A stretch of 64,000 nt of DNA, taken from assembly GCA_964612665.1 (NCBI GenBank), contig CAZTCI010000004.1:270376-334375 (forward strand). Reading direction: 5' to 3'. Numbering within the stretch: position 1 is the first letter of the stretch; each line of letters opens with the position of its first letter. Both the position numbers and the translations under genes were made by a program. Source of the stretch: an uncultured Planctomycetales bacterium (GTDB lineage: Bacteria; Omnitrophota; Gorgyraeia; Zapsychrales; JAHFFX01). The notes below the pieces were generated by a model. It worked only from the letters and a program-made list of their open reading frames with translations. It had not been told where the DNA came from and made no database searches. This document shows positions 7,770 through 46,990 of the stretch, piece by piece.

Positions 7770-8849
7770 ATGCGTATCACTCATTTGTTCATGCAAATGG
7801 TCGCTCACGGGGCGTCGGATTTATTCCTGCGTATCAATTCCATGCCTAAGGCCCGTATCCACGGGAGGGTACGAATTATAGACACCCAACCGGTAACGCC
7901 TGAAGAAATGACCGCGATTACTAATTTTCTTTTAAGTACCGAAGAACGCAAGAAATTTTTTGCGAACAATATGGATATTGATTTTCTTTACAATGAGCCA
8001 GAGGTTGGACGTTTTCGCATTAATATTTTTCGCCAGCGCGGTACCCCCGCGATTGTGGCGAGGCATATTTATAGTCAAATCCGTTCTTTTGAACAATTGA
8101 ATCTGCCGTTGGATTTTCTAAAGAAGGTCTGTGAAGAATCGAGCGGCTTATTTTTAGTGTGCGGCCCGGCGGGCAGCGGTAAATCCACGGCAATCGCCAG
8201 TATGCTTGAATATATTAACCTGACCAGCGAAAAACATATCGTGACCATTGAAGATCCAATTGAATTTTTGTTTCAGGATAAAAAAAGTATTATTAATCAA
8301 AGAGAAATGGGATTGGATGTCCATTCGTATCCTGTTGCTTTAAGACAAGTAACCCAGCAAAGTCCGGACATTATTTTTATTGGCAACACGCGTGATAAAG
8401 AAACGATGGAAGCGGTTATAAACGCGACTGAATTGGGCGCTTTTACCGTGACGACGTTTCATACCGTTAACGCCGTGCAGTCGCTCCATCGGATTATTAA
8501 TTTTTTCCCGCCGCATCTGCATGATGAAATCCGGATTCAACTGTCTTTGCTTTTGAAAGGTATCATTTCGCTTCGATTAGTTCCGCTTAAAGACGGTTCT
8601 GGCCGTATTCCTGCCTATGAAACCGTTTATATCACACCCACCATCGCCCGTCTGATCCGTGAGGGGACGACCAAAGAAATCCAAGCCTATATTGATGAAG
8701 GTGAGCTTTTCGGCATGCGCTCTTTTAAACAATCGCTCGTGCGTCTGGTTAACGAAGGATGGGTTGATGAAGAAGATGCGCGCAAAGTTTCCGACAGCAA
8801 AGACGAATTCAATTTGGAACTTAAAGGCATCAGACGGTTTAACAAATAA
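7770..8849 (+). CDS. pilT: Type IV pilus retraction ATPase PilT
   Basis: Walker A GPAGSGKST. Motifs IVTIEDPIEF and the PilT/PilU-family C-terminus. About 360 aa. Confidence 0.8.
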   Translation: MRITHLFMQMVAHGASDLFLRINSMPKARIHGRVRIIDTQPVTPEEMTAITNFLLSTEERKKFFANNMDIDFLYNEPEVGRFRINIFRQRGTPAIVARHIYSQIRSFEQLNLPLDFLKKVCEESSGLFLVCGPAGSGKSTAIASMLEYINLTSEKHIVTIEDPIEFLFQDKKSIINQREMGLDVHSYPVALRQVTQQSPDIIFIGNTRDKETMEAVINATELGAFTVTTFHTVNAVQSLHRIINFFPPHLHDEIRIQLSLLLKGIISLRLVPLKDGSGRIPAYETVYITPTIARLIREGTTKEIQAYIDEGELFGMRSFKQSLVRLVNEGWVDEEDARKVSDSKDEFNLELKGIRRFNK

Positions 8850-31509: not shown

Positions 31510-31583
31510 CGCGGGGTGGAGCAGGCTGGTAGCTCGTCAGGCTCATAACCTGAAGGCCGCAGGTTCAAATCCTGCCCCCGCAA
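31510..31583 (+). tRNA. tRNA-Met (CAT), initiator-like (C1-A72 mismatch; near-identical to E. coli tRNA-fMet)
   Basis: cgcggggtggagcaggctggtagctcgtcaggctcataacctgaaggccgcaggttcaaatcctgcccccgcaa. An inverted-repeat-rich promoter region lies upstream (ccgcgtaaaatgaaat ... atttcattttacgcgg). Confidence 0.85.
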
Positions 31584-31596
31584 CTCTAACAAACGA

Positions 31597-33101: not shown

Positions 33102-34445
33102 TTGCGGAATCTATTTTGCAATCCGGGGACCTATTTAGCTCTTTTTCTTTTAACTCCCACCACTTCATTTGCCGAGATTAACCACAAAGAATTTCTCTCC
33201 ACCGACTTCATCCAATCTTTTCAGAAACAAGAATACGAAAAAGCTATACAAGAAAGCGATGCACTTCTTAAAAAGTATCCCAATGATCCTCTTGTCCTGC
33301 GTTATCGGGCGCTTACTTTAGAAAAACTTCATCATCCTGATCAAGCCATAAATCTCTACCATGAAATTTTAGCGGCTCATCCTAACGATGAGCCGACACG
33401 TTTATTCTTAGGGTTGACTTATATAAGGGAAGGGGAAAATCACAAAGCCGCTGAAGAACTGCATCAGGTCGTTGAGCATAGCCACTTGCCAGAATACCGG
33501 CATTGGGCGCAGGAGCAATTAGACCGTTTGCATTCATACGAAATTTCCGTCGGCAAGTCTATCCATAAGAAAGCTTATTTTGTTGGGAAAACAGGAATTA
33601 TTTATGACAGCAATCCTTTGCTTATTCCCGATAATCAAAGTTTGTCGTCGACAGAAAAGAATCCTGCGGCGCTGTATGAATTTGAATTGAGCGCCGGATA
33701 TCCGTTGCGGTTGGAAAAAGATTTTCGTTTGGATGCTTTGTATATCGGCGAAACATATCAGCATAGTCATGGCGCTCAGAGTGTTGATTTCACATCTCAG
33801 GGCTTTGCTTTGGATGCTAAAAAACGAACCTTTGCTGGCAGGCGTCCATTTTTGTTGAGTGGCCGATATGATTTTCGCGCGAACTTTTTAAGAAGTGACC
33901 TGTTTTCGATCGTTAATCGGTTTTATGTCAGCGCGGACACATCTTTCTGGCACAAAACGCTCACCAATTTCTTTGCGCGTTTTGCTGTTTCCAATTACGG
34001 TCCCGATGGCGCTAATCCCGATCAATCCTCGCGTGATGGCATTCGCGAAGGCATTGGTGTAACGCAATATTTTTATACCAAAAATCGTAAAAGCTTTTTC
34101 TTCATCAAGGGCGAAGGTGATTTCAATCAAACCCGCGGAGAGAATTTTAATCGTGAAGGTGCGCTCGCCACTATCGGTCTTCATACACCATTTTTTTATA
34201 AAACTGATTTGGATGTGTCTAGTTCATTTAATTGGGGCGTTTATCCGGACTTTACATCGTTATCGTCATTGGATCCGAGCGAACGGCGTGATAAAGGCTG
34301 GGATGCTTACGTCGGCGTGACGCATCATTGGAAGCCAAGTCTTGCGACACGGGTTTTTTATCGTTTTATCAATTCGGATAATAGCAATAATTTATTGGAC
34401 AGTAGCCGGCATCTGGCTGGTTGGGAAGTCATCTTCTTATTTTAA
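33102..34445 (+). CDS. Outer-membrane protein with N-terminal TPR domain and C-terminal beta-barrel (Slam/DUF560-like or PgaA/BcsC-like architecture)
   Basis: Signal peptide ending SFA. TPR repeats over about 120 aa. C-terminal half has alternating-hydrophobic strands and the canonical beta-signal ...GWEVIFLF (terminal Phe, hydrophobics at -1, -3, -5, -7). Confidence 0.45.
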   Translation: MRNLFCNPGTYLALFLLTPTTSFAEINHKEFLSTDFIQSFQKQEYEKAIQESDALLKKYPNDPLVLRYRALTLEKLHHPDQAINLYHEILAAHPNDEPTRLFLGLTYIREGENHKAAEELHQVVEHSHLPEYRHWAQEQLDRLHSYEISVGKSIHKKAYFVGKTGIIYDSNPLLIPDNQSLSSTEKNPAALYEFELSAGYPLRLEKDFRLDALYIGETYQHSHGAQSVDFTSQGFALDAKKRTFAGRRPFLLSGRYDFRANFLRSDLFSIVNRFYVSADTSFWHKTLTNFFARFAVSNYGPDGANPDQSSRDGIREGIGVTQYFYTKNRKSFFFIKGEGDFNQTRGENFNREGALATIGLHTPFFYKTDLDVSSSFNWGVYPDFTSLSSLDPSERRDKGWDAYVGVTHHWKPSLATRVFYRFINSDNSNNLLDSSRHLAGWEVIFLF

Positions 34446-34446
34446 T

Positions 34447-37275
34447 ATGCCTAACAAAATAAAAAATATAGAAGCGATCATCTTTTGCGGGATTTTATTG
34501 TGTATGTTTCTTTCTGTTTCTTCGGTATCGGCTGAGGACAGGAATGTTGCGGTCGACCAGAAGATAGGCGGCATGGAACAAGGACGGCGGATTCAATCGC
34601 CAGGGAATTACAATAATAAGGGGATAACCTCTGGTGAACCAGGAAGTACAACAACACCGGCGCATGATATCCATACGCTTTCGCAAGAATCCCAAAAAGC
34701 GGAAAGCTCTCAAGGAAGGAATATTTCCAATGGTGGGAATCATGGATTTCTTTATGTTCAGGGGCAAGCGAGCAATTCTGCGGACAATCAAAATGGGACT
34801 AATCAAGCCAGCCGCGAACAAACAAATGGCCTGCCTGCCGGACAGGCAGGTTCAACAAGTGCCAATACAAGCCAATCCCCGACGGGACAAGAAAATAGTT
34901 CTCCCAATGTAGGGAGCAGTCAGTCTGGGACTGGGCAATCCAACGGATCGGCAACTGTTAATACTGGTGAAACGCCGACGGGACAAACTGGCTCAGCGCA
35001 TGTGAGTACGGGTGAAACGTCGAGTGGGCAGACAGGTGGATCGGTCAACGTAAATGCGGGACAAACGGGCGGATCATCTGAAGTCAATGTCCCCTCGACG
35101 GGAACTGAACAAACCAGTGGCTCTGTTGGAACTGGAACAGTCCAAACAACAACCGGGCAGATTACGAATCCTGTCAATACAGGATCTCCTGGTACTACAG
35201 CTCCGACAGAAACATCTCCGACGGGACAAATTGAGACCGGAGAAACTCAAACGGGAAGCGGGAATTCAGGAACGAACACGGAATCGTCGGGAACTTCGAA
35301 TAATCCGATCGTTAGTGTTGATGCCAATGTCAATCCGAATTCGGGAGCAGCTGATACGAGTGTTCATACCGATACCAGCGGCCAGTTGGAAGATCGACAA
35401 ATCATTGATGCTGGTGCGACAACCGGACAAACATCGACTCAAACAGAAACAGGCAGTGCGAGTGGAATTACTGGATCCGAAATGGTTCACCAAACTGATA
35501 TAACGATACAACCAGTTGCCCAAACTACACAACAATTTGGAACAACAACTCCCAACACAACGGAAACAAATGTAGGAGCCGGCAATGGTGGAATTATCGT
35601 CGGAGGAGAAACGTCTCCGACCGGCCAAGTCGGAATAGGAGAAACTCAAACGGGAAGCGGCACTTCGCCGACAACAACAGAATCATCGGAAAGTTCAAGT
35701 AATCCGATTGTAGGCGTTGATGTGAATGCCAATCCGAATACAGGAGAAGTTAGTACCGGCATTCGCACAGATACCAGCGGCCAACTGGAAGATCGACAGA
35801 TTATTGATGCAGGCGTTGCTACCGGGCAAACAGAATCAACAGGAACTCAAACAGGCAGTGCGTCACAAATTACCGGGTCGGAAACGATCCATCAAGCGGA
35901 TGTAACAACACAACCAGTTGCCGACGCTGCCGGTCAAACGGGAGACACGACAACAAATGTTGGAACGGGCAACGGCGGAGTTTTGGTTGGCGGAGAGACA
36001 TCGCCGACGGGACAAGTTGAAGCTGGAGAAACTCAAACAGGAAACGGCCCTTCGCAGACAACCACAGAGTCATCCGGAACTTCAAATAATCCCATTGTGG
36101 CTGTCGATGTAAATGCAAATCCGAATTCGGGAGCAGTTGATACTGGCGTTCATACGGATACGAGTGGTCAGTTGGAAGACAGGCAAATCATCGACGCTGG
36201 TGCAACGGGAGAACATACGGGGTCGACTGGAGTTCAAACCGGCAGTGCATCACAGATAACCGGATCCGAAACGGTTCACCAAACTGATCTAACGACACAA
36301 CCTGTTACCGAAGCCACTGGACAAACAGGAACAGGGGAAGTGACAACGAGTACCGGCAATGGTGGAATTCTCATCGGTGGAGAAACATCACCGACGGGAC
36401 AAGTGGGCACGCAAGAAAATATCGGAGGCAGTTCAAGGACAACGCAAGAATCTTCGTCGGGAACTTCTAACCCAATTGTTGATGTTGAAGCTGGTGTCGA
36501 TCAAAATTCAGGAATGCCTCATGCCGAAGTCACTCTTGACACCAGCGGTGAGCTTGAAGAAAGACAAATTCTTGACGCAGACTTAACAGGAGAAACGACG
36601 GGTTCGACGGGCGCGGAAATAGGCGGCGCGACCGATATTACAGATGCAGATCTCGTTGAAGAAGCAGATATAACAACAGAAGTAGTGGGTGGCACAATAG
36701 GTCAAACTGTCCCAGATCAGATCAGCGGTTCAACAAATGGCGGAACTAGTTCTGGTTCTCAAACGCATACCGAAGAATCTTCCAGTACTTCAAGTAATCC
36801 TATCGTTGATATTGGAACAAATATCAATCCCGAATCCGGCACAGCTGATGTCAACGTCGGTGTAGATACAAGCGGTGAACTTGAAGACAGACAAATTTTA
36901 CAATTGGATTTAGCCGCAGACGGCGTTGGTTCCGGAGTAGAAACAGGCAGCGCCTCAGGTATGACGGGATCAGAGACTGTTCATGATGCCAATGTCACAA
37001 CAACACATGTCGCGACGACAGAACAAACGGTTAGCAGAACTTCAGAAACTCAAACGGGAACGAGTGGGATTTCCTCCGAAACACAAACGAGTGGCACCGT
37101 CGAAAGTATAATTTCGGCTCCCGCGGATTTCGGTGCAGAAATCGACACGACCGGTCAGACGGCCGGTGGAGAAGCCGATGTCGGAATAGCGGCTGAGGTT
37201 GATGGTGTTGGTGAAGGTGCTGATGTTGCGAGCGATCCTGCCGACGGACTTTCTACAGGTGGTCCCGGTCTTTAG
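34447..37275 (+). CDS. Large secreted Ser/Thr/Gly/Gln-rich repetitive protein (about 942 aa) with about 5 tandem 125-130-aa modules
   Basis: Signal peptide MPNKIKNIEAIIFCGILLCMFLSVSSVSA (start at 34447 preferred over the ORF-track 34342, which overlaps the upstream gene). Repeat module: GETSPTGQ..GETQTGSG..SNNPIV.VD.N.NPNSG..DT.VHTDTSGQLEDRQIIDAGAT..QTGSASQITGSETVHQTD.TTQPV. Confidence 0.6.
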   Translation: MPNKIKNIEAIIFCGILLCMFLSVSSVSAEDRNVAVDQKIGGMEQGRRIQSPGNYNNKGITSGEPGSTTTPAHDIHTLSQESQKAESSQGRNISNGGNHGFLYVQGQASNSADNQNGTNQASREQTNGLPAGQAGSTSANTSQSPTGQENSSPNVGSSQSGTGQSNGSATVNTGETPTGQTGSAHVSTGETSSGQTGGSVNVNAGQTGGSSEVNVPSTGTEQTSGSVGTGTVQTTTGQITNPVNTGSPGTTAPTETSPTGQIETGETQTGSGNSGTNTESSGTSNNPIVSVDANVNPNSGAADTSVHTDTSGQLEDRQIIDAGATTGQTSTQTETGSASGITGSEMVHQTDITIQPVAQTTQQFGTTTPNTTETNVGAGNGGIIVGGETSPTGQVGIGETQTGSGTSPTTTESSESSSNPIVGVDVNANPNTGEVSTGIRTDTSGQLEDRQIIDAGVATGQTESTGTQTGSASQITGSETIHQADVTTQPVADAAGQTGDTTTNVGTGNGGVLVGGETSPTGQVEAGETQTGNGPSQTTTESSGTSNNPIVAVDVNANPNSGAVDTGVHTDTSGQLEDRQIIDAGATGEHTGSTGVQTGSASQITGSETVHQTDLTTQPVTEATGQTGTGEVTTSTGNGGILIGGETSPTGQVGTQENIGGSSRTTQESSSGTSNPIVDVEAGVDQNSGMPHAEVTLDTSGELEERQILDADLTGETTGSTGAEIGGATDITDADLVEEADITTEVVGGTIGQTVPDQISGSTNGGTSSGSQTHTEESSSTSSNPIVDIGTNINPESGTADVNVGVDTSGELEDRQILQLDLAADGVGSGVETGSASGMTGSETVHDANVTTTHVATTEQTVSRTSETQTGTSGISSETQTSGTVESIISAPADFGAEIDTTGQTAGGEADVGIAAEVDGVGEGADVASDPADGLSTGGPGL
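35200..36950 (+). repeat. Coding tandem repeat array (period about 330-390 bp, about 5 units) inside the Ser/Thr-rich protein gene
   Basis: DTSGQLEDRQIIDAG-encoding segments recur at about 35371, 35772, 36153, 36539 and 36867. Confidence 0.7.
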
Positions 37276-37362: not shown

Positions 37363-37405
37363 GCTCATAACCTGAAGGCCGTTGGTTCAAATCCCACCCC
37401 CGCAA
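37363..37405 (+). repeat. Direct repeat of the 3' half of tRNA-Met (putative att remnant of a 5.8-kb island)
   Basis: gctcataacctgaaggccgttggttcaaatcccacccccgcaa versus tRNA-Met 31541-31583. The anticodon loop through the variable region is 19/19 identical, the T-loop 9/9 and the acceptor 3' end 7/7. The 5' half of the tRNA is absent. Confidence 0.65.
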
Positions 37406-37631
37406 CCTTAATAAAGCTGCCGATAGGCAGCCATCCAAGAAAAGTCCCGTATACCTCTTAAGAATATTTTAGAAAGTGCGGGGGGCAACCAATATAAAAC
37501 CCGATTTCTCGACGAGTAATCGGGTTTTATAGTCTGTTTCGATGAGGTATGTAATTGAATACCTGTCCCAGAAAATTCAGACCATTTCCTTGGGCAGTAT
37601 TGAGAATGAGACAACCTAAGAGGAGGCATCC

Positions 37632-38022
37632 ATGAAGAATTACTTATTCTTGATTATGTTATTGTTAGTTTTCTTGCCGATAAGAGCAGAAGCGGATTCC
37701 AGCATTGATGTTGATTAACAGGAAATGAAGTCGTCCTCGCTCATGATTTTCCCTATTTGAATACTAATGTTTATCAAGGACTTGGATTAGGACAATCGAT
37801 GGTCAGAACAGTCGAAATTATTCAGGTTTTGAGATTCCGTTTGAAACGGAATTAACACCTGGGAAGAAATATTGGATATGGGCAGAAGATCCGCAGTTCA
37901 GCGGCGTGACGTTTAATTACAATACCGCGTTTGTTGGTCATGTTGTCCCCGAACCTGCCACGTTGTTGCTTTTAGGTCCAGCTATCCTGGGGATGGCTGG
38001 GTTGAGAAGAAATAGGGGATGA
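37632..38022 (+). pseudogene. Decayed PEP-CTERM sorting-signal protein gene (signal peptide, body and PEP-CTERM tail in three different frames)
   Basis: Strong Shine-Dalgarno (AGGAGG) then an ATG at 37632 encoding the signal peptide MKNYLFLIMLLLVFLPIRAEA, then a stop at 37716. The 3' end in another frame encodes ..VGHVVPEPATLLLLGPAILGMAGLRRNRG*, the classic PEP-CTERM motif. Multiple stops lie between. Confidence 0.45.
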
Positions 38023-38110: not shown

Positions 38111-38148
38111 AGCCAGTCAGTGACTTTCGTCGTTGGCTGGTTTTTTTG
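38111..38148 (+). terminator. Terminator-like hairpin plus T-run (agccagtcagtga...ttggctgg then tttttttgtttt), paralog of the motif at 31597
   Basis: Read from sequence. Confidence 0.5.
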
Positions 38149-38192: not shown

Positions 38193-38597
38193 TTACTTCT
38201 TCAGACTAATCTTCCCATCCGCGCTGGAACTCAATTCAATCTCCTTATTCTGATTCGTGTGCACATTCAACAGCACAACGGAGTTCTCTTTAATTTCTAA
38301 AAGTTTATAATCTCCGAACGCTGCTCCGATTTCATAAATCATTCCATTAATCAACGCCAAAGCCTTGTTGTCTTGGTGCGTAATGCCTTGGAGCTTGACT
38401 GAGGCGTCGGCATTTGGGTTGGCTTTCATTTTTGCAACCATTTCTTTTTCCTTTTGGACTCTTTTCAAGGTCGCCATTTGGTTCTGTTTATAATTAAAGA
38501 GAAGGAAAACGGTAGTAAGCAGAAGCAATAAAATAACCGCTTGAATCTGAAATCTTCCGTCGGACAATAAAAAGGATAAATATTTTGAGTTTTTCAT
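38193..38597 (-). CDS. PilP/GspC-like pilus/secretion assembly protein (N-terminal TM plus HR-like beta domain)
   Basis: C-terminal SVKLQGITHQDNKALALINGMIYEIGAAFGDYKLLEIKENSVVLL fits the PilP/GspC HR-domain pattern. Last gene of the pilus operon. Confidence 0.4.
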   Translation of the reverse strand: MKNSKYLSFLLSDGRFQIQAVILLLLLTTVFLLFNYKQNQMATLKRVQKEKEMVAKMKANPNADASVKLQGITHQDNKALALINGMIYEIGAAFGDYKLLEIKENSVVLLNVHTNQNKEIELSSSADGKISLKK

Positions 38598-39532
38598 TTT
38601 TGGCCTTTCGTTAAACGTTTTGCGTATTCGTAATCCGATTTTGTATAAGAGTTCGCGATTTTCTGGGTTTGGGCTTTAAGTTGGGCGATATTGGCTGTCA
38701 GATAAATGCAAGTTAACATGACGATCAATAAGAGGCCTTGCATTGCTAACATAATTTTTTGCCGTTCTTGAGCTGAGATAGAGTGCCCTCGCATAAAATC
38801 GAGATTCAAAAAAGCTGGCAACGATTCCTGTGCCGGCGCATCGGGCATGGTTGTCAGGTCGCCGCCATTTTTCTTGATGTCTTCTTTCAACTGCTCAATC
38901 AGATCTCCTTTGATATTCCCCGTCGTGAAAAACTGTCCCCAATTTTTATCCGCGCTTTTGGCGGTCACGCTTCGTAAGGATTGAATGACCTCATCGCGGG
39001 CTTCTTTAAATCCTTCATAGCGGATCTCCCGCAAAAGTTCGCATTCACCGCCGCAGAAAATCGCCACATGCAGACGGTTATCTGAATCAAAATAAATCAC
39101 ACACCAACGTCCGGTTTGTTTTTCTTGCTGCTGTATAAATGTATCTATTTTCATCAATATCGCAGAAGTGACACGGGCTGGGGTGATTCCGGATTTGTGA
39201 GCCGCTTTAAGATATTCCTGTAAAACTGATTTTGGTATGCACATAAAAATCCCTTTAAGCTCGTCTTTGTCGTTTACCAAAACTTGATAATCTAACTCAA
39301 TCTCACTGGATGGTAAAGATAAAAGCCCTACCGCTTCAAACATTAACCTGGCCCGCAAATCTTTCAAACCAATCGTGCTTACATTAAAAGGATAGACCAG
39401 GCATTTTGGATCAGATAATGCCAGCGCAATCGGGTTTTTCGACGATAAATCGGCCAATGTGATTTCGTGTAATGACTGGCCTAAATCTAAAGGAGATGAT
39501 GCGGTTAGCGTTGATAAAGATGCGATAGTCAT
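38594..39532 (-). CDS. PilM/GspL-like assembly protein (cytoplasmic actin-like domain plus C-terminal TM)
   Basis: Position in the operon. A cytoplasmic domain of about 250 aa followed by the TM helix LLLIVMLTCIYLTANIA. Confidence 0.4.
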   Translation of the reverse strand: MTIASLSTLTASSPLDLGQSLHEITLADLSSKNPIALALSDPKCLVYPFNVSTIGLKDLRARLMFEAVGLLSLPSSEIELDYQVLVNDKDELKGIFMCIPKSVLQEYLKAAHKSGITPARVTSAILMKIDTFIQQQEKQTGRWCVIYFDSDNRLHVAIFCGGECELLREIRYEGFKEARDEVIQSLRSVTAKSADKNWGQFFTTGNIKGDLIEQLKEDIKKNGGDLTTMPDAPAQESLPAFLNLDFMRGHSISAQERQKIMLAMQGLLLIVMLTCIYLTANIAQLKAQTQKIANSYTKSDYEYAKRLTKGQK

Positions 39533-39536
39533 ATTT

Positions 39537-40763
39537 TTAAAGCTCCTGCCACTTGCGTGTGTTTGAATTGATTGTCCCTCCTAAAACCTGGTCATAATGG
39601 ATTTGACCATTTTGAAGAAGGGTTACAGTTTTTCCGACGACAGCGCCGTAATATCCATTGTTGTTACTAATTGTGACGCCCGTGCCAGGAGCGTAAACCG
39701 CGCCGTAAAAACTGCCGTTGTTGGTGATTTGAACGCCGTTGTTACCGGTATAGGTGCTGAAAATTTGAAACTTGGATGGGGTCCCGCCGTTATTGACGCT
39801 TCCGTTGTTACTTAAATTGATGGGCCCGTCGGTATAGATCGTTACACTGGCGCCGGCATTTAAAACAAATAAAAAATTATTCCCCGTTGAGACCGCTGAT
39901 GTTGTGCTGGTTAAATAAAGATTAACAGTGCCATTGAACGTAACGGTTTTGTTATTACTCAAACTAATGGCCGTATATTTGTAATTTCCGGCGGCGAGTG
40001 TTGTATTATTGGTAATGCTGCCGCTGTTTGAAAGACTGGTTAAATTTGATGGAACACTGACCGAGGGTAAAGTAATGTTGTTCGTATTGGTCGTTGATCC
40101 ATTGACTGGTGTATTCCCGACGCTGACGGTGCCTCCCGCGCCGGTGCTGACATCACCATTAACATGAGCATTGTTATCAATTGTAATGGCGTTCGCCGTT
40201 GTTCCGTCTGTACCGACGTCGCCGTTCGTTTGAATATTGGCGCCGCCGTAGGCACCGCTGTTTGAATCATAACTATTGATGAGCGTATTGTTGTTTAAGG
40301 TAATTGAATTTTGAGCAAAGGCTGCATACTTAAAAAGTGAACCGCTGTCCAATTGGATCGTGCGCGAAACTTTGTTCGCTGCCGTGCGGCTTGGGTACCA
40401 GCCTTTGGCCACGACGATCATGTTGCCGTCATCAAATGAAATATCGTAATCGCCATAGACGGTTGAAGCATCGAACTTTAATTGAGTGTTGAGAACTTTG
40501 TTCCCGCCGCCGCAATTAAGACAGCTGGTGCAATGCGTTGTTGTTCCTTCTTGAAATAAAGCCGCGCAGCTATTGTGATTGTATTCCCATAATGTTTTTT
40601 GAATGCCAGCCTCGGCGAGCCAAAAAGCCCTGTTATAAAGGACCTCTTTTTCGGCGCGTTCCTTTTGTACCATCGACAAGTACATCGATCCCAATCCTAA
40701 GAGCGTGAAGGTCAAGATAAACATTAATGTGATGACGAGAATAGATCCGCGTTCATTTCTCAT
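39537..40763 (-). CDS. Large minor pseudopilin (GspK/PilX-like) with Asn/Thr/Ser-rich beta-rich C-terminal region
   Basis: N-terminal hydrophobic prepilin-like segment MRNERGSILVITLMFILTFTLLGLG. 408 aa. Operon context. Confidence 0.45.
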   Translation of the reverse strand: MRNERGSILVITLMFILTFTLLGLGSMYLSMVQKERAEKEVLYNRAFWLAEAGIQKTLWEYNHNSCAALFQEGTTTHCTSCLNCGGGNKVLNTQLKFDASTVYGDYDISFDDGNMIVVAKGWYPSRTAANKVSRTIQLDSGSLFKYAAFAQNSITLNNNTLINSYDSNSGAYGGANIQTNGDVGTDGTTANAITIDNNAHVNGDVSTGAGGTVSVGNTPVNGSTTNTNNITLPSVSVPSNLTSLSNSGSITNNTTLAAGNYKYTAISLSNNKTVTFNGTVNLYLTSTTSAVSTGNNFLFVLNAGASVTIYTDGPINLSNNGSVNNGGTPSKFQIFSTYTGNNGVQITNNGSFYGAVYAPGTGVTISNNNGYYGAVVGKTVTLLQNGQIHYDQVLGGTINSNTRKWQEL

Positions 40764-41239
40764 GGATTTCTCCTGCGTACGGTTGTGCCTTCCACAAAAT
40801 TAATATTGTCTTTTGTCCCGGATATTTCAATCTTGACGGAATTGCTGGTTACTCCCGGAGAGGGGAATGTTAACGTAATCGTGCCAGGCTGCGGCACCGA
40901 TAAAATGGTTTGGCGTTGAACACCGTTGTCATACACTAAATCGACTGTTGAGGCGTTCGTTTGGTAAAGGCCGAAAATAGCGGCATCAATCAAAAAGTGT
41001 TTGCCGCTGATCCAAGGCGAAGGCTGATTGGTCAAAGTCAGAGTCTTCGCGACGCGGACCTTGTTTTGTAATAATTTAAATGCGTAAGAAAGATCATTAT
41101 AAATTTGCTGTTGGCTGTTTAATTTTTTATATGAACTGTTGCCGATCGTCGAGAGTGTTCCTATCGTCAAAATCAAAATAGACGCGATCATGATCGCGAG
41201 CAGAAATTCAATTAATGAGTGGCCATGCGTATTTTTCAT
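40760..41239 (-). CDS. Minor pseudopilin (prepilin-type N-terminal methylation domain)
   Basis: GHSLIEFLLAIMIASILIL class III signal-like N-terminus. Confidence 0.55.
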   Translation of the reverse strand: MKNTHGHSLIEFLLAIMIASILILTIGTLSTIGNSSYKKLNSQQQIYNDLSYAFKLLQNKVRVAKTLTLTNQPSPWISGKHFLIDAAIFGLYQTNASTVDLVYDNGVQRQTILSVPQPGTITLTFPSPGVTSNSVKIEISGTKDNINFVEGTTVRRRNP

Positions 41240-41631
41240 GGGGCTATAAAGGTTGCTAAATCAATTTCCTGATTTTGTTTGCCGGGTTCGGCCCAAGTAA
41301 ATTTCATTTCTACTAATTTTAGGGAGCCCGCTCCCGATTGATCGGTTACCCGTCGCTGTTTTTGAACAATAAAGTCAGAGCTTCCGAAGTAAATATTCTG
41401 GGCCGTTTCCCAGCTTCCCGAGGCCGGGTTCGGCAAACTGGCATAGCCATCGACTCTCATTTGTTCTATTTGCTGTGTCCCTAATTCCATGGCGATTTTT
41501 TTATGCATGTTTAACGCCATGACCTCTTGAGGATGACAATAAAATCCAATACTTCCCGCCAGGACCATAGTCAAAAGGACAATTGAAACCAAAACTTCAA
41601 CTAAGGTATAACCTTTGAAATTTTTTCTCAT
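41236..41631 (-). CDS. Minor pseudopilin (prepilin-type N-terminal methylation domain)
   Basis: KGYTLVEVLVSIVLLTMVLAG N-terminus. Confidence 0.55.
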   Translation of the reverse strand: MRKNFKGYTLVEVLVSIVLLTMVLAGSIGFYCHPQEVMALNMHKKIAMELGTQQIEQMRVDGYASLPNPASGSWETAQNIYFGSSDFIVQKQRRVTDQSGAGSLKLVEMKFTWAEPGKQNQEIDLATFIAP

Positions 41632-41654
41632 GATGAATACCCGAGATATGCAAA

Positions 41655-41739
41655 TTGTGTCATTGCGAGGAGTGCTTTTTGCGGCGAAGCCATCGAAGAG
41701 ATCGCTTCGCTAAAAAAGCGCACGCTCGCAATGACACAA
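41655..41739 (-). promoter_or_regulatory. Long imperfect hairpin just downstream of the major pilin gene (outer 15-bp perfect arms ttgtgtcattgcgag / ctcgcaatgacacaa, inner gcgaagc/gcttcgc); probable attenuating terminator
   Basis: Read from sequence. An internal U-run (gcgcttttttagcg) appears on the transcribed strand. Confidence 0.55.
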
Positions 41740-41756
41740 AATTGCACGAGCGTTTA

Positions 41757-42353
41757 TTAGTAAGCGCTCCAGTTCGTAGCCGTTCCGCAGTTTGCGTAGC
41801 AAACAAAAATACGGCCGCTGTTATCCATTTCTAATTCATAACCAGCAATTTCATCTGCATGGACTGCGCAGCTGGTATCTGTATTCGCAGCGCATTTGTA
41901 GCTGTTATCACCCTTCATACTGATTAAAAATCCGACAGGAGCTGGATTCGTGAACAGCTGTGAGCGGGTGTTGGCGTTGGTTGGCGCCGGAGCTTCGACA
42001 TAAAATGAAGCGTTGGAGAAATATTGAGACACGCCGACATTGACATCGACACCGGACGGATCAGGTGTTGGAACACCCGTCGCTGCCACAACACTTGAGG
42101 GTAATGGTTTTTGGATATTTCCGGCGGTATTTGAGAGGTTTGTGTCCTGAGCAACATCAAAGAACGTGTTGTGATTCACGTTATAGTCACGTTCGGCCTG
42201 GCGGACTAAACCGGCCGTGGCCACTGCTTCTGACATTTTTGATTTCTTGGTGTTGGCCAAATAGATCGGTGTGGCGACCGCTGCCAAAATGGCGACGATG
42301 ATCAACACGACCAATAATTCGACCATGGTAAAACCTTGCTTGTTGTTTAACAT
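41757..42353 (-). CDS. Major type IV pilin / pseudopilin
   Basis: Class III prepilin leader MLNNKQGFTMVELLVVLIIVAILAAVATP (G-F/T-MVE cleavage/methylation motif). 198 aa. Strong AAGGAGA Shine-Dalgarno. Followed by the long hairpin. Confidence 0.65.
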   Translation of the reverse strand: MLNNKQGFTMVELLVVLIIVAILAAVATPIYLANTKKSKMSEAVATAGLVRQAERDYNVNHNTFFDVAQDTNLSNTAGNIQKPLPSSVVAATGVPTPDPSGVDVNVGVSQYFSNASFYVEAPAPTNANTRSQLFTNPAPVGFLISMKGDNSYKCAANTDTSCAVHADEIAGYELEMDNSGRIFVCYANCGTATNWSAY

Positions 42354-42518
42354 TGCTGTTTCTCCTTGTTGTTTGTTTTTCTTGTTGCTTGCTGTTTATT
42401 TATACTGATGTCCATCAAATGATGTGATTTCAGTGCTTATTATTAACGGCGCTTTTTTTTCAGTGAAGTGTTCAACTCAAAGAATTAAAAAGACTAGCTC
42501 CCCCAAAGGAGCGTCACT

Positions 42519-43727
42519 TCACCTCAAAGCTCCGGAAATTTTAAAAATTGGCAGATACAACGCCAAAACTACAACCAATACAATCCCGCCGATAAAAATA
42601 ATCAGCGCGGGTTCCAACAAAACTGTTAAGCGGCTTAATGTATTATCAAGTTCATCATCATAATAGTCGGCGGTGCGTTTGAGCATCTCAGAGACCTTGC
42701 CGGTTTTTTCTCCGACGGCAACCATTTTTTTAACCATGCCTGAGAAAATTTTCTGCCCACGGATTTCTGAGGTCAAATCTGAACCGGCCACGACCCGTTG
42801 GCGTACATTCATAATTGCTTCGGCAAGAGGGCGATGATTGACGACCTGGGCGGTAATTTCGAGCGACGTGGATAAACCTACGCTCCCTTCGATTAGGACA
42901 CTCAATGTCCGGCAGAAACTTGAAATGCAACCTTTATAAATGACATTTTTACCGACGATGGGAATTTTGAATTTGGCATAGTCAACAGCATGGCGGAATT
43001 TAGGATTCTTTAGCGCAATCCAAAATGCGAAGAAAGCCGCCACGATTCCTAAAAGAACAATAGGGAACGCATGGATCATTGTTTCGCTTATACCGACCAC
43101 AATCCTTGTTAAAAGCGGTAATTGTCCTCCAGCGCTTTCAAACATGCTTTTAAATTTCGGAATCAAAAATAGAACAATGATAAGCACCACAGCAATGGCA
43201 AAACCAATGACGAATAACGGATAACGAAGGGCAGTGACAACTTTTTCTTTCATCCGTTCGGAATTTTCTATATATCTAGCCAGCTCGTTTGTTGTCCTGT
43301 CCAGGCGGCCGGTCGCTTCTCCCGATTTGATGATTGCGGTGTAGGTTTTTGGAAAAATCCTTGGGTATTTTAGAAGTGTCGTCGAGAAATCAGCCCCGCC
43401 GCGGATGTCTTTGGCGATTGAGAGGATGACCGTTTGAAAATATTTATTTTCCACATCTTCGGCAATTGTTTCCAAAGCATCTGTCAAAAGTAATCCCGAA
43501 GCCAAGGTTGCTGCCAGCTGGCGCGTGAAAACAACCAACTCCTTGCTTTTAACGCGGCCTGCCGTCAAAAAGCCTTTAGGCAATTGTTCTTTGTTTTGAA
43601 TGGCTTTGATTTTGATGGGCAGTAGCCCTTCTTTACTTAGACGAAAGACAACACTACTGACGTCATCAGCGTGGATTGTTCCAGTTATGTTGCGTCCATC
43701 TTTTTGGGCCGTGTATTTGAATATCAT
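42519..43727 (-). CDS. Type IV pilus / T2SS platform protein (GspF/PilC family)
   Basis: Two T2SSF domains and 3 TM segments. About 400 aa. Confidence 0.85.
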   Translation of the reverse strand: MIFKYTAQKDGRNITGTIHADDVSSVVFRLSKEGLLPIKIKAIQNKEQLPKGFLTAGRVKSKELVVFTRQLAATLASGLLLTDALETIAEDVENKYFQTVILSIAKDIRGGADFSTTLLKYPRIFPKTYTAIIKSGEATGRLDRTTNELARYIENSERMKEKVVTALRYPLFVIGFAIAVVLIIVLFLIPKFKSMFESAGGQLPLLTRIVVGISETMIHAFPIVLLGIVAAFFAFWIALKNPKFRHAVDYAKFKIPIVGKNVIYKGCISSFCRTLSVLIEGSVGLSTSLEITAQVVNHRPLAEAIMNVRQRVVAGSDLTSEIRGQKIFSGMVKKMVAVGEKTGKVSEMLKRTADYYDDELDNTLSRLTVLLEPALIIFIGGIVLVVVLALYLPIFKISGALR

Positions 43728-43736
43728 AGGCGTTCC

Positions 43737-45425
43737 TTAAAATTCTATGGTTTGTTGAGTCACTCTTAAAAGTTCTTCGGCTGTTGTGATGCCTTCTTTA
43801 AGTTTTTCAATTCCGGCTTCACGCAGGGTTTTCATCCCGCCTTTTTTGGCGAGAGCTAAGACTTCGTCAGCTGAGCTTCGTTGTAAAATTAATTGGCGGA
43901 TGGAATCATCTGGAATTAAAAGCTCATAAATAGCGACGCGGCCTTTATAACCACTGTTGAAACATTTTGAACATCCTGAACCGCGGGAAAAAGTTTTGAT
44001 TTGTCCGTCGAGCGCTAATTTTTCGAGGACATCGCGCGAAGGACGATAAGTTTGCTGGCAGTCGGGACAAATCGTGCGGATTAAACGCTGGGCCACGACG
44101 CACAAAAGTGAAGAAGTGATTAAATAGGGTTCGACTCCCATATTGGCCAAACGTACAGCGGCGCCGCAGGCATCGTTCGTATGAAGTGTTGTAAAAACCA
44201 AGTGGCCGGTTAAGGCGGCGTGAGTGGCGATTTCGGCGGTTTCGCGGTCACGGATTTCACCGACCATGATGACATCGGGATCTTGCCGGAGAATCGAACG
44301 TAATCCGCGGGCGAAATCAAAACCAATTTGAGTGTTCACTTGAGATTGTTGAATGAAAGGCAATCGATATTCGACGGGATCTTCTAAGGTAATAATATTT
44401 TTTTCATCGGATTTGATGGCGTTAAGCGCTGTATACAAAGTGGTCGTCTTTCCGCTTCCCGTCGGGCCAGTGACCAAGATCATGCCGTAAGAAGAAAGAA
44501 TGAGGCTGTTAATTTTCTGTAAGTCGCAAGCCGAAAAACCCAAAGCATCTAAGCCAAGCAAAGGATGCGACGTGTCCAAAAGGCGCATGACAATGCTTTC
44601 GCCATAGATCGTCGGAAAACAAGAGGTCCGGATGTCAATTTCTTTGCGGCCGATATTTATTTTGAAACGGCCGTCCTGGGGCAATCGCCGTTCAGCAATG
44701 TCGAGTCCGGCCATGATCTTAATGCGGGCCGTGATGGCCGAGAGCATCTCTTTGGGCGGTGGATCGATTGGATGTAAAACGCCGTCGATCCGCAGCCGCA
44801 ATTCGACGCGTTCTTGTTTAGGCTGGATATGAATGTCGCTCGCTGATTTCGTCATCGCCTCCACAATCAGATCGCGGACATATTGGACGACTGGCTGGTC
44901 GTCGGCTTCAAAAATCTTTTCTTCCTGGACTACAGCGGCTGGCTGTTCGGTGCGCGTCTCTGAATCGATAAAATCCTCGACGTGCTTTTTTAAACGCGGC
45001 AGGTGCTGGTAACAATATTCAATGGCTTCGATGATTTCATCTTCGTTGGCGACGACGTATTGGATTTTAAATCCAGTTCTGAGGCGAAGTGTATCGATAG
45101 CTAACAGGTCAAGCGGATCAAACATCGCGACCGTCAGCGTTTTATCTTTAAGATCAATAGGAAGAGTGCTAAACCGGTGAGCCAGTTCCCGGGGAATCGC
45201 TGCAATGACATCGTGTTTAATGTCTTTATAAATGTCTTTAAGGGGGATATAAGGAATATGAAAATATTTGGCAAGAAAGGGAGCCATCTTTTGCGGCGTA
45301 ATGTATCCCATTTTCAAAAGAATATCGCCGAGACGGTCGTGAGTCCGTTCCTGCTCGGTTAAAGCAATCTTTAATTCTTGGGCCGTAATGAGTCCTTCAC
45401 GCGTCAAAGATTCGCCGATTCTCAT
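43737..45425 (-). CDS. Type IV pilus / T2SS assembly ATPase (GspE/PilB/MshE family) with tandem MshEN-like N-terminal motifs
   Basis: Walker A GPTGSGKTT, Asp box, His box and the tetracysteine CPDC..C..C. The N-terminus has two RxGxxLxxxGxI..xxL repeats (RIGESLTREGLITAQELKIAL; RLGDILLKMGYITPQKMAPFL) resembling the c-di-GMP-binding MshEN domain. Confidence 0.85.
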   Translation of the reverse strand: MRIGESLTREGLITAQELKIALTEQERTHDRLGDILLKMGYITPQKMAPFLAKYFHIPYIPLKDIYKDIKHDVIAAIPRELAHRFSTLPIDLKDKTLTVAMFDPLDLLAIDTLRLRTGFKIQYVVANEDEIIEAIEYCYQHLPRLKKHVEDFIDSETRTEQPAAVVQEEKIFEADDQPVVQYVRDLIVEAMTKSASDIHIQPKQERVELRLRIDGVLHPIDPPPKEMLSAITARIKIMAGLDIAERRLPQDGRFKINIGRKEIDIRTSCFPTIYGESIVMRLLDTSHPLLGLDALGFSACDLQKINSLILSSYGMILVTGPTGSGKTTTLYTALNAIKSDEKNIITLEDPVEYRLPFIQQSQVNTQIGFDFARGLRSILRQDPDVIMVGEIRDRETAEIATHAALTGHLVFTTLHTNDACGAAVRLANMGVEPYLITSSLLCVVAQRLIRTICPDCQQTYRPSRDVLEKLALDGQIKTFSRGSGCSKCFNSGYKGRVAIYELLIPDDSIRQLILQRSSADEVLALAKKGGMKTLREAGIEKLKEGITTAEELLRVTQQTIEF

Positions 45426-45661
45426 GACGCACCTCTCTGAGATTTGGCCGATTTATATAGGGAAGATAATAATTCTTGTTTGTTGATCCGGTAATGACCG
45501 CCCGGTGTGCGGATGGTGGGGATTTTACCGCCGGCAATCAGTTTTTTTAAAGTGCCTAAACTGATGTGCAATAATTTTGCTGCTTCGGTTGAAGTTAAAA
45601 AAACGGAGTCCTGTTGTCTAATCACGTTGTCGGTCTTTCTTCGGAGGTCATCAATTGGCAA
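45422..45661 (-). CDS. Small HTH DNA-binding protein (excisionase/MerR-like HTH_17) at the head of the pilus operon
   Basis: LTSTEAAKLLHISLGTLKKLIAGGKIPTIRTPGGHYRINKQEL. Its stop overlaps the ATPase start. Confidence 0.5.
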   Translation of the reverse strand: MPIDDLRRKTDNVIRQQDSVFLTSTEAAKLLHISLGTLKKLIAGGKIPTIRTPGGHYRINKQELLSSLYKSAKSQRGAS

Positions 45662-45886: not shown

Positions 45887-45915
45887 TTGACAACATCCTC
45901 AGCGTCGATTATATT
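45887..45915 (+). promoter_or_regulatory. Near-consensus sigma70 promoter (TTGACA-17 nt-TATATT)
   Basis: -35 at 45887-45892 and -10 at 45910-45915. The ORF-track 'start codon' of the 45887 ORF is the TTG of this -35 box. Confidence 0.6.
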
Positions 45916-45925
45916 TGAAACGTCT

Positions 45926-46022
45926 TTACTGACTTTTGCACTGCAAAAGTCTAGTACTAGGCCTTTTCTCTTCGATAACGAAAAGAACGGCTTATCTTGG
46001 GAAAGGAAAAGGCCAGTAAACG
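45926..46022 (+). promoter_or_regulatory. Conserved leader/operator element, copy A. A 21-bp perfect palindrome (GACTTTTGCA-c-TGCAAAAGTC) starts 8 nt after the predicted TSS. A second helix follows (ggccttttctc...g(g/a)gaaaaggcc)
   Basis: Read from sequence. Copy B at 60676-60777 shares the first 45 bp almost identically and the closing aaaaggcca(g/a)taaa. Confidence 0.6.
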
Positions 46023-46059
46023 GTGGCGCTGAAGCCGCCAAAATTTTATCAGGCAAAGA

Positions 46060-46096
46060 GGCCCTGAACCGAAAACGGTTCGGGGTTTTTTATTTT
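46060..46096 (+). terminator. Intrinsic terminator-like hairpin (ccctgaaccg-aaaa-cggttcgggg followed by ttttttatttt) abutting the ATG of the PAS-LuxR gene
   Basis: 9/10-bp stem and an 11-nt U-rich tract. Lies between the promoter/leader and the CDS, suggesting attenuation control. Confidence 0.55.
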
Positions 46097-46990
46097 ATGG
46101 TGAATAAAAATCCCATGGCCAGCAAATTACCTTCCCAAAATTACCAACACGATCTACTTTTATCCGACGAAGAATTCTTAAGGGATTTTTTTGAAAACTC
46201 GCCCATTGGTTTCCATGTTTTCGGACCTGATAAAATTATTCAGGCCATTAATCAAGCCGAATTGAATATGCTGGGCTATCTTCGCGAGGAAATTATTGGG
46301 CGTAAAAAATGGTCAGATCTAATCATTCCACAACAGCGCGCTCAATTTGAACAGCATTGGAAAGATATTTTAAAGGTGGGGCGGGTCATTGACCTGCGTT
46401 ATACATTGCGTACAAAAACCGGTGGGTCGATCGACGTCATGTTAAACGCCTCGGCGCGGTTTAGCCCGTCGGGAAATCTTCTGAACACCCGCGGCACGGT
46501 TTTGGAAATCAGTCATTTTAATAAAGCTTATCAGGCCTTGCAGAATTCTGTCATTTCTTTAAAACAGCAAAAACAATTGCTGGAACAGCAGAACCAAGCG
46601 CTTAATGTTCTGCTCGCCAATCTTGAGATTGAAAAACAGACGCTTAAAAACAATGTGAATGCGAATTTAGAAAAATTGATCCTGCCGCTTTTAAAGAAAC
46701 TCAAACACCGCTCCAACACGTCGGATGAACAGTATCTAGAACTTTTAGAAAAGAATTTTTTAGGGCTCACATCCGGTTTCGGCCATAAGCTGCTTAATCC
46801 GCGCTGGAAACTCAGCCCGCGGGAAATTGAAATCTGTAATATGATCAAAAGCGGACTGTCAACCAAGGCGATCGCCGATACACTATGCGTCTCGGAACGG
46901 ACGATCGAGCATCACCGTAATCATATCCGTAAAAAACTGGCGTTAACGAAAAATCGGATGAACTTGGTTAGTTATTTGCAATCTTTATAG
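46097..46990 (+). CDS. PAS-domain transcriptional regulator with C-terminal LuxR/FixJ-type HTH
   Basis: PAS-like N-terminal region (FFENSPIGFHVFGPD..). C-terminal LSPREIEICNMIKSGLSTKAIADTLCVSERTIEHHRNHIRKKL. The 5' extension to 45887 is rejected. Confidence 0.6.
   Translation: MVNKNPMASKLPSQNYQHDLLLSDEEFLRDFFENSPIGFHVFGPDKIIQAINQAELNMLGYLREEIIGRKKWSDLIIPQQRAQFEQHWKDILKVGRVIDLRYTLRTKTGGSIDVMLNASARFSPSGNLLNTRGTVLEISHFNKAYQALQNSVISLKQQKQLLEQQNQALNVLLANLEIEKQTLKNNVNANLEKLILPLLKKLKHRSNTSDEQYLELLEKNFLGLTSGFGHKLLNPRWKLSPREIEICNMIKSGLSTKAIADTLCVSERTIEHHRNHIRKKLALTKNRMNLVSYLQSL

Follow-up and report, generated by a model that had tools for sequence, protein, structure and literature searches.

A compact type IV filament operon

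The DNA considered here is a 64,000-nucleotide (64-kb) stretch of contig CAZTCI010000004.1, and we refer to this whole stretch as the window. Nine open reading frames (ORFs) on its minus strand, between positions 38193 and 45661, make up an operon for a type IV pilus (T4P)-like machine with traits of both the type IVa pilus (T4aP) and the type II secretion system (T2SS). The spacing is tight (4-base overlaps or short gaps), and the run from the helix-turn-helix (HTH) protein to the last small protein leaves no room for further genes in the operon. An initial annotation, made from the sequence alone, had read the nine genes in this order, and its gene-by-gene reading holds, with each ORF recovered at exactly the coordinates that it proposed; it had also placed a separate pilT gene at position 7770, which the TIGR01420 score given below bears out. 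The features are as follows (aa, amino acids; c-di-GMP, cyclic di-GMP; TM, transmembrane).

45422..45661, minus strand: small DNA-binding protein of the HTH_17/excisionase family, 79 aa from a TTG start (Pfam HTH_17, E 1.6e-12; TIGR01764, E 3.4e-13)
43737..45425, minus strand: PilB/GspE-family extension ATPase, 562 aa (T2SSE, E 6e-136)
45264..45422, minus strand: predicted MshEN c-di-GMP-binding module, ATPase residues 2 to 54 (NF053729, phmmer, and motif read-out)
45000..45257, minus strand: second half of the ATPase N-domain, GSPII / Pfam "MshEN" region, residues 57 to 142 (PF05157, E 1e-16)
42519..43727, minus strand: PilC/GspF inner-membrane platform protein, 402 aa (T2SSF, E 3e-58)
41757..42353, minus strand: T4a-type major pilin, 198 aa (N_methyl, E 1.4e-8)
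41236..41631, minus strand: minor pilin, 131 aa, G/YTLVE (N_methyl, E 1.2e-7; position conserved in relatives)
40760..41239, minus strand: minor pilin, 159 aa, G/HSLIE (N_methyl, E 8.4e-5; position conserved in relatives)
39537..40763, minus strand: large PilX/GspK-like minor pilin, 408 aa (PilX_N, 29 bits; DUF7305, E 6.6e-19; pAdhesive_15, E 7.6e-6)
38594..39532, minus strand: protein with a PilM-fold domain and a single TM helix, 312 aa (AlphaFold2 model and Foldseek; no Pfam family)
38193..38597, minus strand: small bitopic protein, 134 aa (hhalign to the C-domain of a GspB-position protein; weak T2SSB, CdsD_C, and GspC_delta matches)
7770..8849, plus strand: PilT/PilU-family retraction ATPase (TIGR01420, 367 bits; cutoff, 319)

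Conservation of the operon and its secretin-bearing version

Based on the closest ATPases in a species-level genome collection, which are 58 to 67% identical and mostly found in metagenome-assembled genomes (MAGs) labeled Candidatus Omnitrophota, the host is probably a member of the Omnitrophota. Proteins identical to those of the window were found in three metagenome runs and on one unannotated 340-kb NCBI contig, and nowhere else. The order ATPase, platform, pilin, minor pilin, minor pilin, PilX-like protein, PilM-like protein, and small protein recurs in loci L008 to L014 and again in L026 to L029, four loci reached through the family of the 312-aa protein; in all, it is conserved in at least 12 loci, mostly from Omnitrophota MAGs. 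Locus L007 has the same operon type and ends after the pilin, where the locus is incomplete.

The initial annotation had framed the system as one without a secretin or prepilin peptidase, and the relatives do not support this as a trait of the system type: in L011 to L014 the orthologous operon runs on unbroken, directly after the small last gene, into a secretin gene, which is followed by genes for an ExeA-like ATPase and a GspB-position protein. The secretins (~490 to 510 aa) match the PilQ and GspD models at E ~1e-70 and the Pfam families Secretin, Secretin_N, and STN, and the ExeA/GspA-like ATPase (265 aa) scores 288 bits against TIGR03015. Because the operons of four relatives continue into this module, the system type is secretin-associated, and the window holds a version of the locus without the secretin/ExeA-like/GspB-like module. 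Eight of the 12 loci (the window, L008, L009, L010, L026, L027, L028, and L029) stop after the small protein, with unrelated genes next, and no secretin lies within 10 kb on either side of the L010 operon. Fuller versions, with PilM_2, PilN, and PilO together with a secretin, are found in two other Omnitrophota loci (L030 and L032).

In a neighbor-joining tree, the ATPases of the operon family (the window and L007 to L014) form one clade that excludes the PilB paralogues of canonical T4aP clusters in Omnitrophota; within it, the four secretin-bearing loci make up a subclade with 100% support. Since the other loci branch without resolution, the tree does not give a direction, loss or gain, to the history of the secretin module.

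Several loci carry accessory genes inserted among the pilus genes (L008, 8552 to 9194; L011, 7722 to 8415; L029, 2083 to 2445, 3644 to 4852, and 7628 to 9995), with the pilus gene order otherwise intact. Those of L029 are annotated as toxin-antitoxin-type genes (MNT/HepT-like, ParE, and PIN) plus a 23S_rRNA_IVP gene; L008 and L011 each have a pair of small unannotated ORFs in the same position, which we take to be similar from their sequence. Some record labels name other groups: L007, of the window's operon type, and L020 and L021, which are canonical T4aP clusters, are labeled "Planctomycetales," and L009 is labeled "Patescibacteria group." We consider these labels probably loose or wrong.

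An extension ATPase with a predicted c-di-GMP-binding N terminus

The ATPase scores 595 bits against the PilB model TIGR02538 (cutoff, 676) and 586 bits against the GspE model TIGR02533, both under the equivalog cutoffs. Its N terminus had been described as carrying two tandem MshEN-like motifs, and profile and motif read-out agree on this point: NCBIfam NF053729 ("c-di-GMP motif, MshE-related") matches residues 2 to 53 at 61.1 bits against a cutoff of 38, motif I (residues 2 to 25) reads RIGESLTREGLITAQELKIALTEQ, and motif II (residues 31 to 54) reads RLGDILLKMGYITPQKMAPFLAKY, with the spacer ERTHD between them. The MshEN signature consists of two 24-residue motifs, 5 residues apart (PMC5013675). 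When the first 156 residues are searched with phmmer, the best PDB sequence match is Myxococcus xanthus PilB (3jc8, E 5.6e-27). Alignment with MshE N-domains, which had been suggested as a check, is significant over residues 2 to 137 for the Vibrio cholerae MshE N-domain crystallized with c-di-GMP (5htl, E 1.6e-17), and Geobacter PilB and Thermus PilF also align significantly. The second half of the N-domain (residues 57 to 142) was aligned to the N-domains of PilB, PilF, and MshE.

The four diagnostic glycines (G4, G11, G33, and G40; 11, 18, 40, and 47 in V. cholerae) and the leading arginines R2 and R31 are all present; among orthologues, motif I opens with R, K, H, or Q. In MshE, the terminal glutamine of each motif (V. 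cholerae Q32 and Q61) contacts ribose and phosphate (PMC5013675). Motif I of the window's ATPase ends in Gln; the last residue of motif II is Tyr here and Tyr, His, or Phe across the family, and Tyr is permitted by the relaxed motif of PMC5013675. The strict MshEN pattern is mismatched at I2 (Ile for Leu) and T7 in motif I and at Y11, M17, and Y24 in motif II; under the relaxed pattern of PMC5013675, motif II fits and motif I fails at position 7 only. Because of the terminal Tyr of motif II and Thr7 of motif I, c-di-GMP binding by the ATPase N terminus is predicted rather than certain; it is a good prediction, and we think it likely to prove correct. The second-messenger control that the initial annotation suggested holds at the same level, as a prediction from the motifs.

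The tandem motif is retained in all nine members of the operon family (9/9). The canonical T4aP clusters of Omnitrophota have PilB paralogues in which it is degenerate, as it is in three non-Omnitrophota ATPases encoded beside a secretin (L016, L018, and L019). MshEN N termini on PilB/MshE/GspE-family ATPases are a published and widespread class of c-di-GMP receptor (PMC5013675; for PilB, PMC6957770); the presence of such a module on a pilus ATPase is therefore already well described and is not new here.

These canonical clusters, which comprise PilT, two PilB paralogues, PilC, and, in loci that reach far enough, a secretin, also encode stand-alone proteins of 140 to 155 aa that resemble the ATPase N-domain (L015, 1422 to 1871; L017, 9971 to 10420; L020, 3491 to 3922; L021, 296 to 763 and 4211 to 4636). 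A partial MshEN motif (QLGELLLERGVINQAQLEKALKLQ) is present in some of these; in L015 and L020, the two PilB paralogues that were checked lack the motif.

Platform protein and pilins

The best NCBIfam match of the platform protein is GspF (TIGR02120, 343 bits, below the cutoff); it scores 285 to 299 bits against PilC equivalogs with a cutoff of 700, and among PDB sequences it is closest to M. xanthus PilC (E 6e-73). Three proteins carry the N_methyl prepilin motif (G/FTMVE, G/YTLVE, and G/HSLIE), with leaders of 6 to 7 residues. Classified by leader, as the initial annotation had proposed, the major pilin is T4a-type: it has a 7-residue leader (MLNNKQG/FTMVE), Phe1, Glu5, and four C-terminal cysteines in two pairs (154, 162, 185, and 189). 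In a phmmer search of PDB sequences, it matches Neisseria PilE at E 2.6e-9 over 100 residues, compared with E 0.045 for GspG, and its match to the GspG model TIGR01710 (36 bits; cutoff, 89) covers the N terminus only.

The best matches of the minor pilins, all weak, are to ComGD, ComGE, and ComGF; the 131-aa protein gives weak PilV, GspI, and ComGE matches. The 408-aa protein combines a PilX N terminus without Glu5 and a predicted beta-helix "ice-binding-like adhesive" domain, and it is the probable tip subunit and adhesin. Its counterparts in relatives range from 317 to 753 aa, variation of the kind expected for a contact surface.

A tethered PilM fold and a small bitopic protein

In profile searches, neither the 312-aa nor the 134-aa protein matches a family above threshold, and the labels "PilM/GspL-like" and "PilP/GspC-like" that the initial annotation gave them have marginal sequence support (E 0.017 and 0.013). 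Word-indexed homologue searches with either protein returned almost nothing, and an exhaustive HMMER search was needed. That search placed the 312-aa protein in a family of 110 clusters at 50% identity (E<1e-30), nearly all of them 300 to 330 aa long. In the AlphaFold2 model, built from an alignment of 81 family clusters (predicted local distance difference test score [pLDDT], 92.9; predicted template-modeling score, 0.84), ~230 residues form an actin-like domain, a long helix contains the single TM segment (~258 to 285), and ~27 residues make up a periplasmic tail. Foldseek against the PDB ranks PilM first (5eou, E 1.2e-14), then FtsA, and then the cytoplasmic domain of EpsL/GspL (E ~7e-8). 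On this model, the protein is a PilM fold with GspL-like membrane tethering and without a periplasmic domain, and the structure thus upholds its PilM/GspL-like label.

The label of the 134-aa protein is upheld in part. The protein consists of a conserved cytoplasmic N terminus, one TM helix, a coiled stretch, and a periplasmic C-domain of ~60 residues, and hhalign finds this C-domain homologous to that of the GspB-position protein in the secretin-bearing relatives (98.3%; E 1.7e-14). Its matches to T2SSB, CdsD_C, and GspC (GspC_delta) recur and are weak throughout; a profile search of PDB sequences gave no match, and a single-sequence AlphaFold2 model was poor (pLDDT, 68; 44 to 78 in the C-domain) and is not used. 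GspB sits next to GspA, as the small protein after the ExeA/GspA-like ATPase does in the relatives. Domains of the GspC homology region (HR), PilP, and ExeB kind contact the N0 domain of the secretin in T2SS and T4P. By analogy, we infer that the C-domain of the 134-aa protein would contact a secretin N0 domain.

Secretin, prepilin peptidase, and the content of the window

As the initial annotation stated, no secretin and no PilD-type peptidase are encoded near the operon. Pfam and NCBIfam scans of nearly all ORFs of at least 110 aa in the 64-kb window found neither a secretin nor an A24 prepilin peptidase, tblastn of the window with the relatives' secretins gave only E values above 2.8, and a scan of the window for the GxGD-K motif of prepilin peptidases found nothing. 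T4P genes are commonly dispersed around the genome, and no prepilin peptidase adjoins the Omnitrophota pilus genes in any locus fetched; for these two reasons, absence from 64 kb is weak evidence. Secretin genes are abundant in Omnitrophota: of the candidates scored, 1213 match at E<1e-10, and many of these are labeled Omnitrophota. Among the best 120 of these 1213 matches, which are at least ~45% identical to the query, none lies on the window's own 340,394-bp contig or on the 304,738-bp contig of L010.

The organism had been called diderm, and the window contains the corresponding outer-membrane genes (LptE, a BamD-like YfiO protein, Lnt, lipid A acyltransferase, TonB_C, and an alginate-export porin). 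Other genes encode SecA, MurJ, enolase, and proteins of nitrite and nitrate metabolism. Apart from the operon, the window is an ordinary piece of a diderm bacterial chromosome, in which pilT lies 29 kb from the operon.

Relation to known systems

The operon leans closer to T4aP than to T2SS, based on its PilE-like major pilin with a short leader, Phe1, Glu5, and Cys, on its M. xanthus PilC-like platform, and on the PilT in the window. Its T2SS-like traits are the GspF-leaning score of the platform, a GspL-like topology, a GspC/GspB-like domain, and the ExeA/GspB pair in relatives. Because it reaches none of the equivalog cutoffs of the named systems (PilB, GspE, GspF, PilC, GspG, ComGA, and MshL), we class the operon as a reduced variant in its own right inside the type IV filament superfamily rather than as a strict T4aP, T2SS, or mannose-sensitive hemagglutinin (MSHA) pilus.

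With the T4aP of Myxococcus and Geobacter, whose PilB binds c-di-GMP, the operon shares an MshEN ATPase, a PilC-like platform, a T4a pilin, and the PilM fold, and a PilT is likewise encoded, outside the operon. It differs in that there are no separate PilN, PilO, and PilP genes and its PilM is fused to a TM helix, in that there are three minor pilins rather than four or five plus PilY1, and in that no PilQ or PilD is present in the window; moreover, the ATPase and platform fall under the PilB and PilC cutoffs, and the ATPase clade is separate from canonical Omnitrophota PilB. With the MSHA pilus of V. cholerae it shares the tandem 24-residue motifs and their 5-residue spacer, and the secretin followed by an ExeA-like ATPase in relatives recalls mshL-mshM, since the MshL secretin gene lies next to the ExeA-like mshM. 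However, no MSHA-specific family is matched, gene order and content differ, and the relatives' secretins score 232 to 240 bits on the PilQ and GspD models but only 140 to 158 on the MshL model TIGR02519 (cutoff, 250); on these secretin scores, we rejected membership in the MSHA class.

The features shared with T2SS are a GspF-like platform, a TM-tethered actin-like domain (GspL), a small bitopic protein of the GspC/GspB type, a large GspK/PilX-like minor pilin without Glu5, and, in relatives, the ExeA/GspA-like ATPase with the GspB-position protein. In contrast to T2SS, the operon has a major subunit unlike GspG and lacks GspM and GspH, PilT is present, no secretin is in the window, the PDZ or coiled-coil part of GspC is missing, and the GspL-like protein lacks a periplasmic domain. 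T2SS membership was rejected on the major subunit (PilE-like; GspG, E 0.045). Membership in ComG, the competence pilus of monoderms, was likewise rejected (ComGA, 263 bits versus 300; ComGB, 154 versus 240; diderm host).

A TXSScan survey of Omnitrophota found most T4aP components in nearly all genomes and proposed roles in cell-cell attachment (PMC10066038). Its "T4aP" clusters come from the same phylum as our operon, but the survey does not contain the present architecture, the PilM-TM fusion, or the MshEN motif, nor does it separate secretin-bearing from secretin-less versions, and its main text never uses the word "secretin."

A proposed mechanism and its alternatives

In total, we favor, with a probability of roughly 0.6, a proposal in which the operon encodes a reduced T4P-type machine characteristic of Omnitrophota, a c-di-GMP-gated adhesive pilus whose secretin and prepilin peptidase are encoded elsewhere. 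The components, their folds, the conservation of the operon, and the presence of the MshEN module are shown by the comparisons above; the working of the machine is proposed. In this model, c-di-GMP would bind the tandem motifs of the ATPase N terminus and license pilus extension, with gating as in V. cholerae MshE and the PilB proteins of Myxococcus and Chloracidobacterium. A prepilin peptidase encoded elsewhere would mature the pilins, and the three minor pilins would prime the fiber and set the adhesin-like beta-helix subunit at its tip. The fiber would then cross the outer membrane via a secretin encoded elsewhere, and PilT (7770 to 8849), acting in trans, would retract it. We posit that such a pilus would probably serve in attachment to surfaces or to host or prey cells and possibly in DNA uptake, given comEA and comEC in the window.

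The weakest part of this proposal is the supply of secretin and peptidase in trans. Because the 134-aa protein retains the periplasmic domain of the GspB-position protein, a secretin partner probably still exists, and a secretin in trans is favored because Omnitrophota secretins are abundant and T4aP genes occur in nearly all Omnitrophota genomes (PMC10066038).

Several observations weigh against the proposal and deserve to be set out together. Within the 64 kb read, no secretin or prepilin peptidase was found for the organism, and its 340,394-bp contig shows no close homologue of the operon-type secretin among the best 120 of the 1213 matches. Eight of 12 loci are without a secretin, and the absence may thus be functional loss rather than relocation. 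With no PilN or PilO gene and a PilM-like protein almost devoid of a periplasmic part, the trans-envelope connection would be unusually thin. The ribose- and phosphate-contacting Gln of motif II is replaced by Tyr, position 7 of motif I is Thr, and no GGDEF, EAL, or HD-GYP motif occurs in any reading frame of the window. Finally, profile similarity is the entire basis for the role assigned to the 134-aa protein. A lone PilZ-pattern match, in a molybdopterin oxidoreductase, was discarded as spurious.

Could the filament instead be a competence pilus, taking up DNA together with ComEA and ComEC, whose genes lie near the window's first position? A comEA-like gene (HHH_3; TIGR01259, E 6e-12) and comEC (Competence, E 3e-60) occupy positions 116 to 2115 on the plus strand, followed by the BamD-like and LptE genes. 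The presence of PilT and the weak ComGD, ComGE, and ComGF matches of the minor pilins would suit this function, as would the finding that an MshEN-bearing PilF drives transformation in Thermus (PMC11731258). On the other hand, comEA and comEC are common housekeeping competence genes and lie 36 kb away, the ATPase falls under the ComGA model (263 bits versus 300), and the large beta-helix tip subunit suggests adhesion. We consider competence an unlikely primary function; as a role, it is compatible with a c-di-GMP-gated adhesive pilus and not exclusive of it.

A second alternative takes the missing secretin at face value: the filament of the short operon would stay in the periplasm, as a short pseudopilus or "endopilus," or cross the outer membrane by a non-secretin route. 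Consistent with this alternative, eight of the 12 readable loci end without a secretin, none is present in the window or within 10 kb of L010, the best 120 secretin matches include none on either contig (340,394 and 304,738 bp), and the alignment subcomplex is strongly reduced. To our knowledge, however, no diderm T4P or T2SS is known to work without a secretin. Two further points tell against it: the last gene keeps the periplasmic domain that it shares with the GspB-position protein of relatives, and Omnitrophota secretins are many (1213 matches at E<1e-10, many labeled Omnitrophota), of which the matches listed extend only down to ~45% identity. We regard secretin independence as improbable, and more so its stronger form, in which an Omnitrophota sublineage (8 of 12 loci) would run a T4P-like machine without a dedicated secretin and with its alignment complex nearly gone, under variant-MshEN c-di-GMP control.

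The last alternative, a T2SS whose pseudopilus exports proteins such as the neighboring 977-aa repeat protein or PEP-CTERM proteins, has in its favor the platform's best NCBIfam match (GspF, 343 bits), the fit of the GspL-like topology and GspC/GspB-like domain, published reports of secretion or pilus loci near large Omnitrophota proteins, and the neighbor-joining tree, in which, at a node without a support value, the ATPase clade lies nearer to three ATPases encoded just downstream of a secretin (in two Desulfobacterales MAGs and one Chlamydiae MAG) than to the Omnitrophota PilB paralogues; we give it little credence, as the major subunit is T4a-like with two Cys pairs and not GspG, there are only three minor pilins, PilT is present, the GspE, GspF, and GspG equivalog cutoffs are not reached, and the 977-aa protein is encoded convergently and may belong to an insert flanked by tRNA sequences.

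The sequence around the operon

At its upstream end, the operon begins with the HTH gene, whose product is 67 aa as called by gene callers on identical metagenome contigs (L001 and L004) and whose stop overlaps the ATPase start by 4 bases; this gene is not conserved upstream of the operon in the relatives' loci. The best sigma-70-like match in the region (45887 to 45915, plus strand; TTGACA, 17 nucleotides, TATATT; 11/12) coincides with the listed TTG start of a divergent PAS-LuxR regulator gene (45887 to 46990), and because of this coincidence the real start of that gene is probably further downstream. Promoter and terminator scans as a whole gave counts not above those for shuffled sequence and were not used as evidence. 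Candidates for local regulation are the PAS-LuxR protein and the small HTH protein, neither of which is conserved beside the operon in relatives.

The 3' side of the operon abuts a stretch bounded by tRNA-Met sequences. A 3' fragment of tRNA-Met, from the anticodon loop to the acceptor end, lies at 37368 to 37410 (plus strand), ~5.8 kb downstream of an intact tRNA-Met (31510 to 31584, plus strand), with ~41 of 46 bases in common. The interval that separates them contains short gene fragments, an ArsR-type HTH gene, a 447-aa tetratricopeptide repeat (TPR) protein (33102 to 34445, plus strand) with a weak likeness to the PEP-CTERM-system TPR protein PrsT, and, after it, the 977-aa protein (34342 to 37275, plus strand). 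The last of these is rich in Ser, Thr, and Gly, has ~6 visible repeats of ~150 aa (…SNPIV.VD.N.NP.SG…TDTSGQLEDRQIIDAG…), matches no Pfam or NCBIfam family, and is encoded convergently to the pilus operon. The stretch looks like the remnant of an element integrated at a tRNA; no integrase was seen there.

Between the tRNA-Met fragment and the operon lies a decayed PEP-CTERM gene (37632 to 38022, plus strand), made up of a 28-aa signal-peptide ORF (MKNYLFLIMLLLVFLPIRAEA...) and a C-terminal ORF ending in VPEPATLLLLGPAILGMAGLRRNRG, which are out of frame with each other and separated by stop codons; beyond them, at 38111 to 38142 (plus strand), is a terminator-like hairpin. In L027, an intact PEP-CTERM gene (PF07589) comes directly after the operon.

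Implications

Omnitrophota are uncultured, ultra-small bacteria thought to be predators or parasites, and pili are among their few candidate contact organelles. The architecture described here is a compact, previously undescribed variant conserved in this phylum. It does not overturn current understanding: if the secretin and peptidase are encoded elsewhere, as expected, the system is a compact but otherwise ordinary representative of the type IV filaments, and it would surprise the specialist only if complete genomes prove to be without secretins. What it does offer is of three kinds. Two operon components stand outside any Pfam family, namely, the PilM-TM fusion (~110 clusters at 50% identity) and the small HR-like protein. 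The ATPase N terminus is a specific candidate for a c-di-GMP receptor. And the existence of secretin-bearing and secretin-less versions of the same operon provides a comparative handle on the minimal machinery of a diderm pilus.

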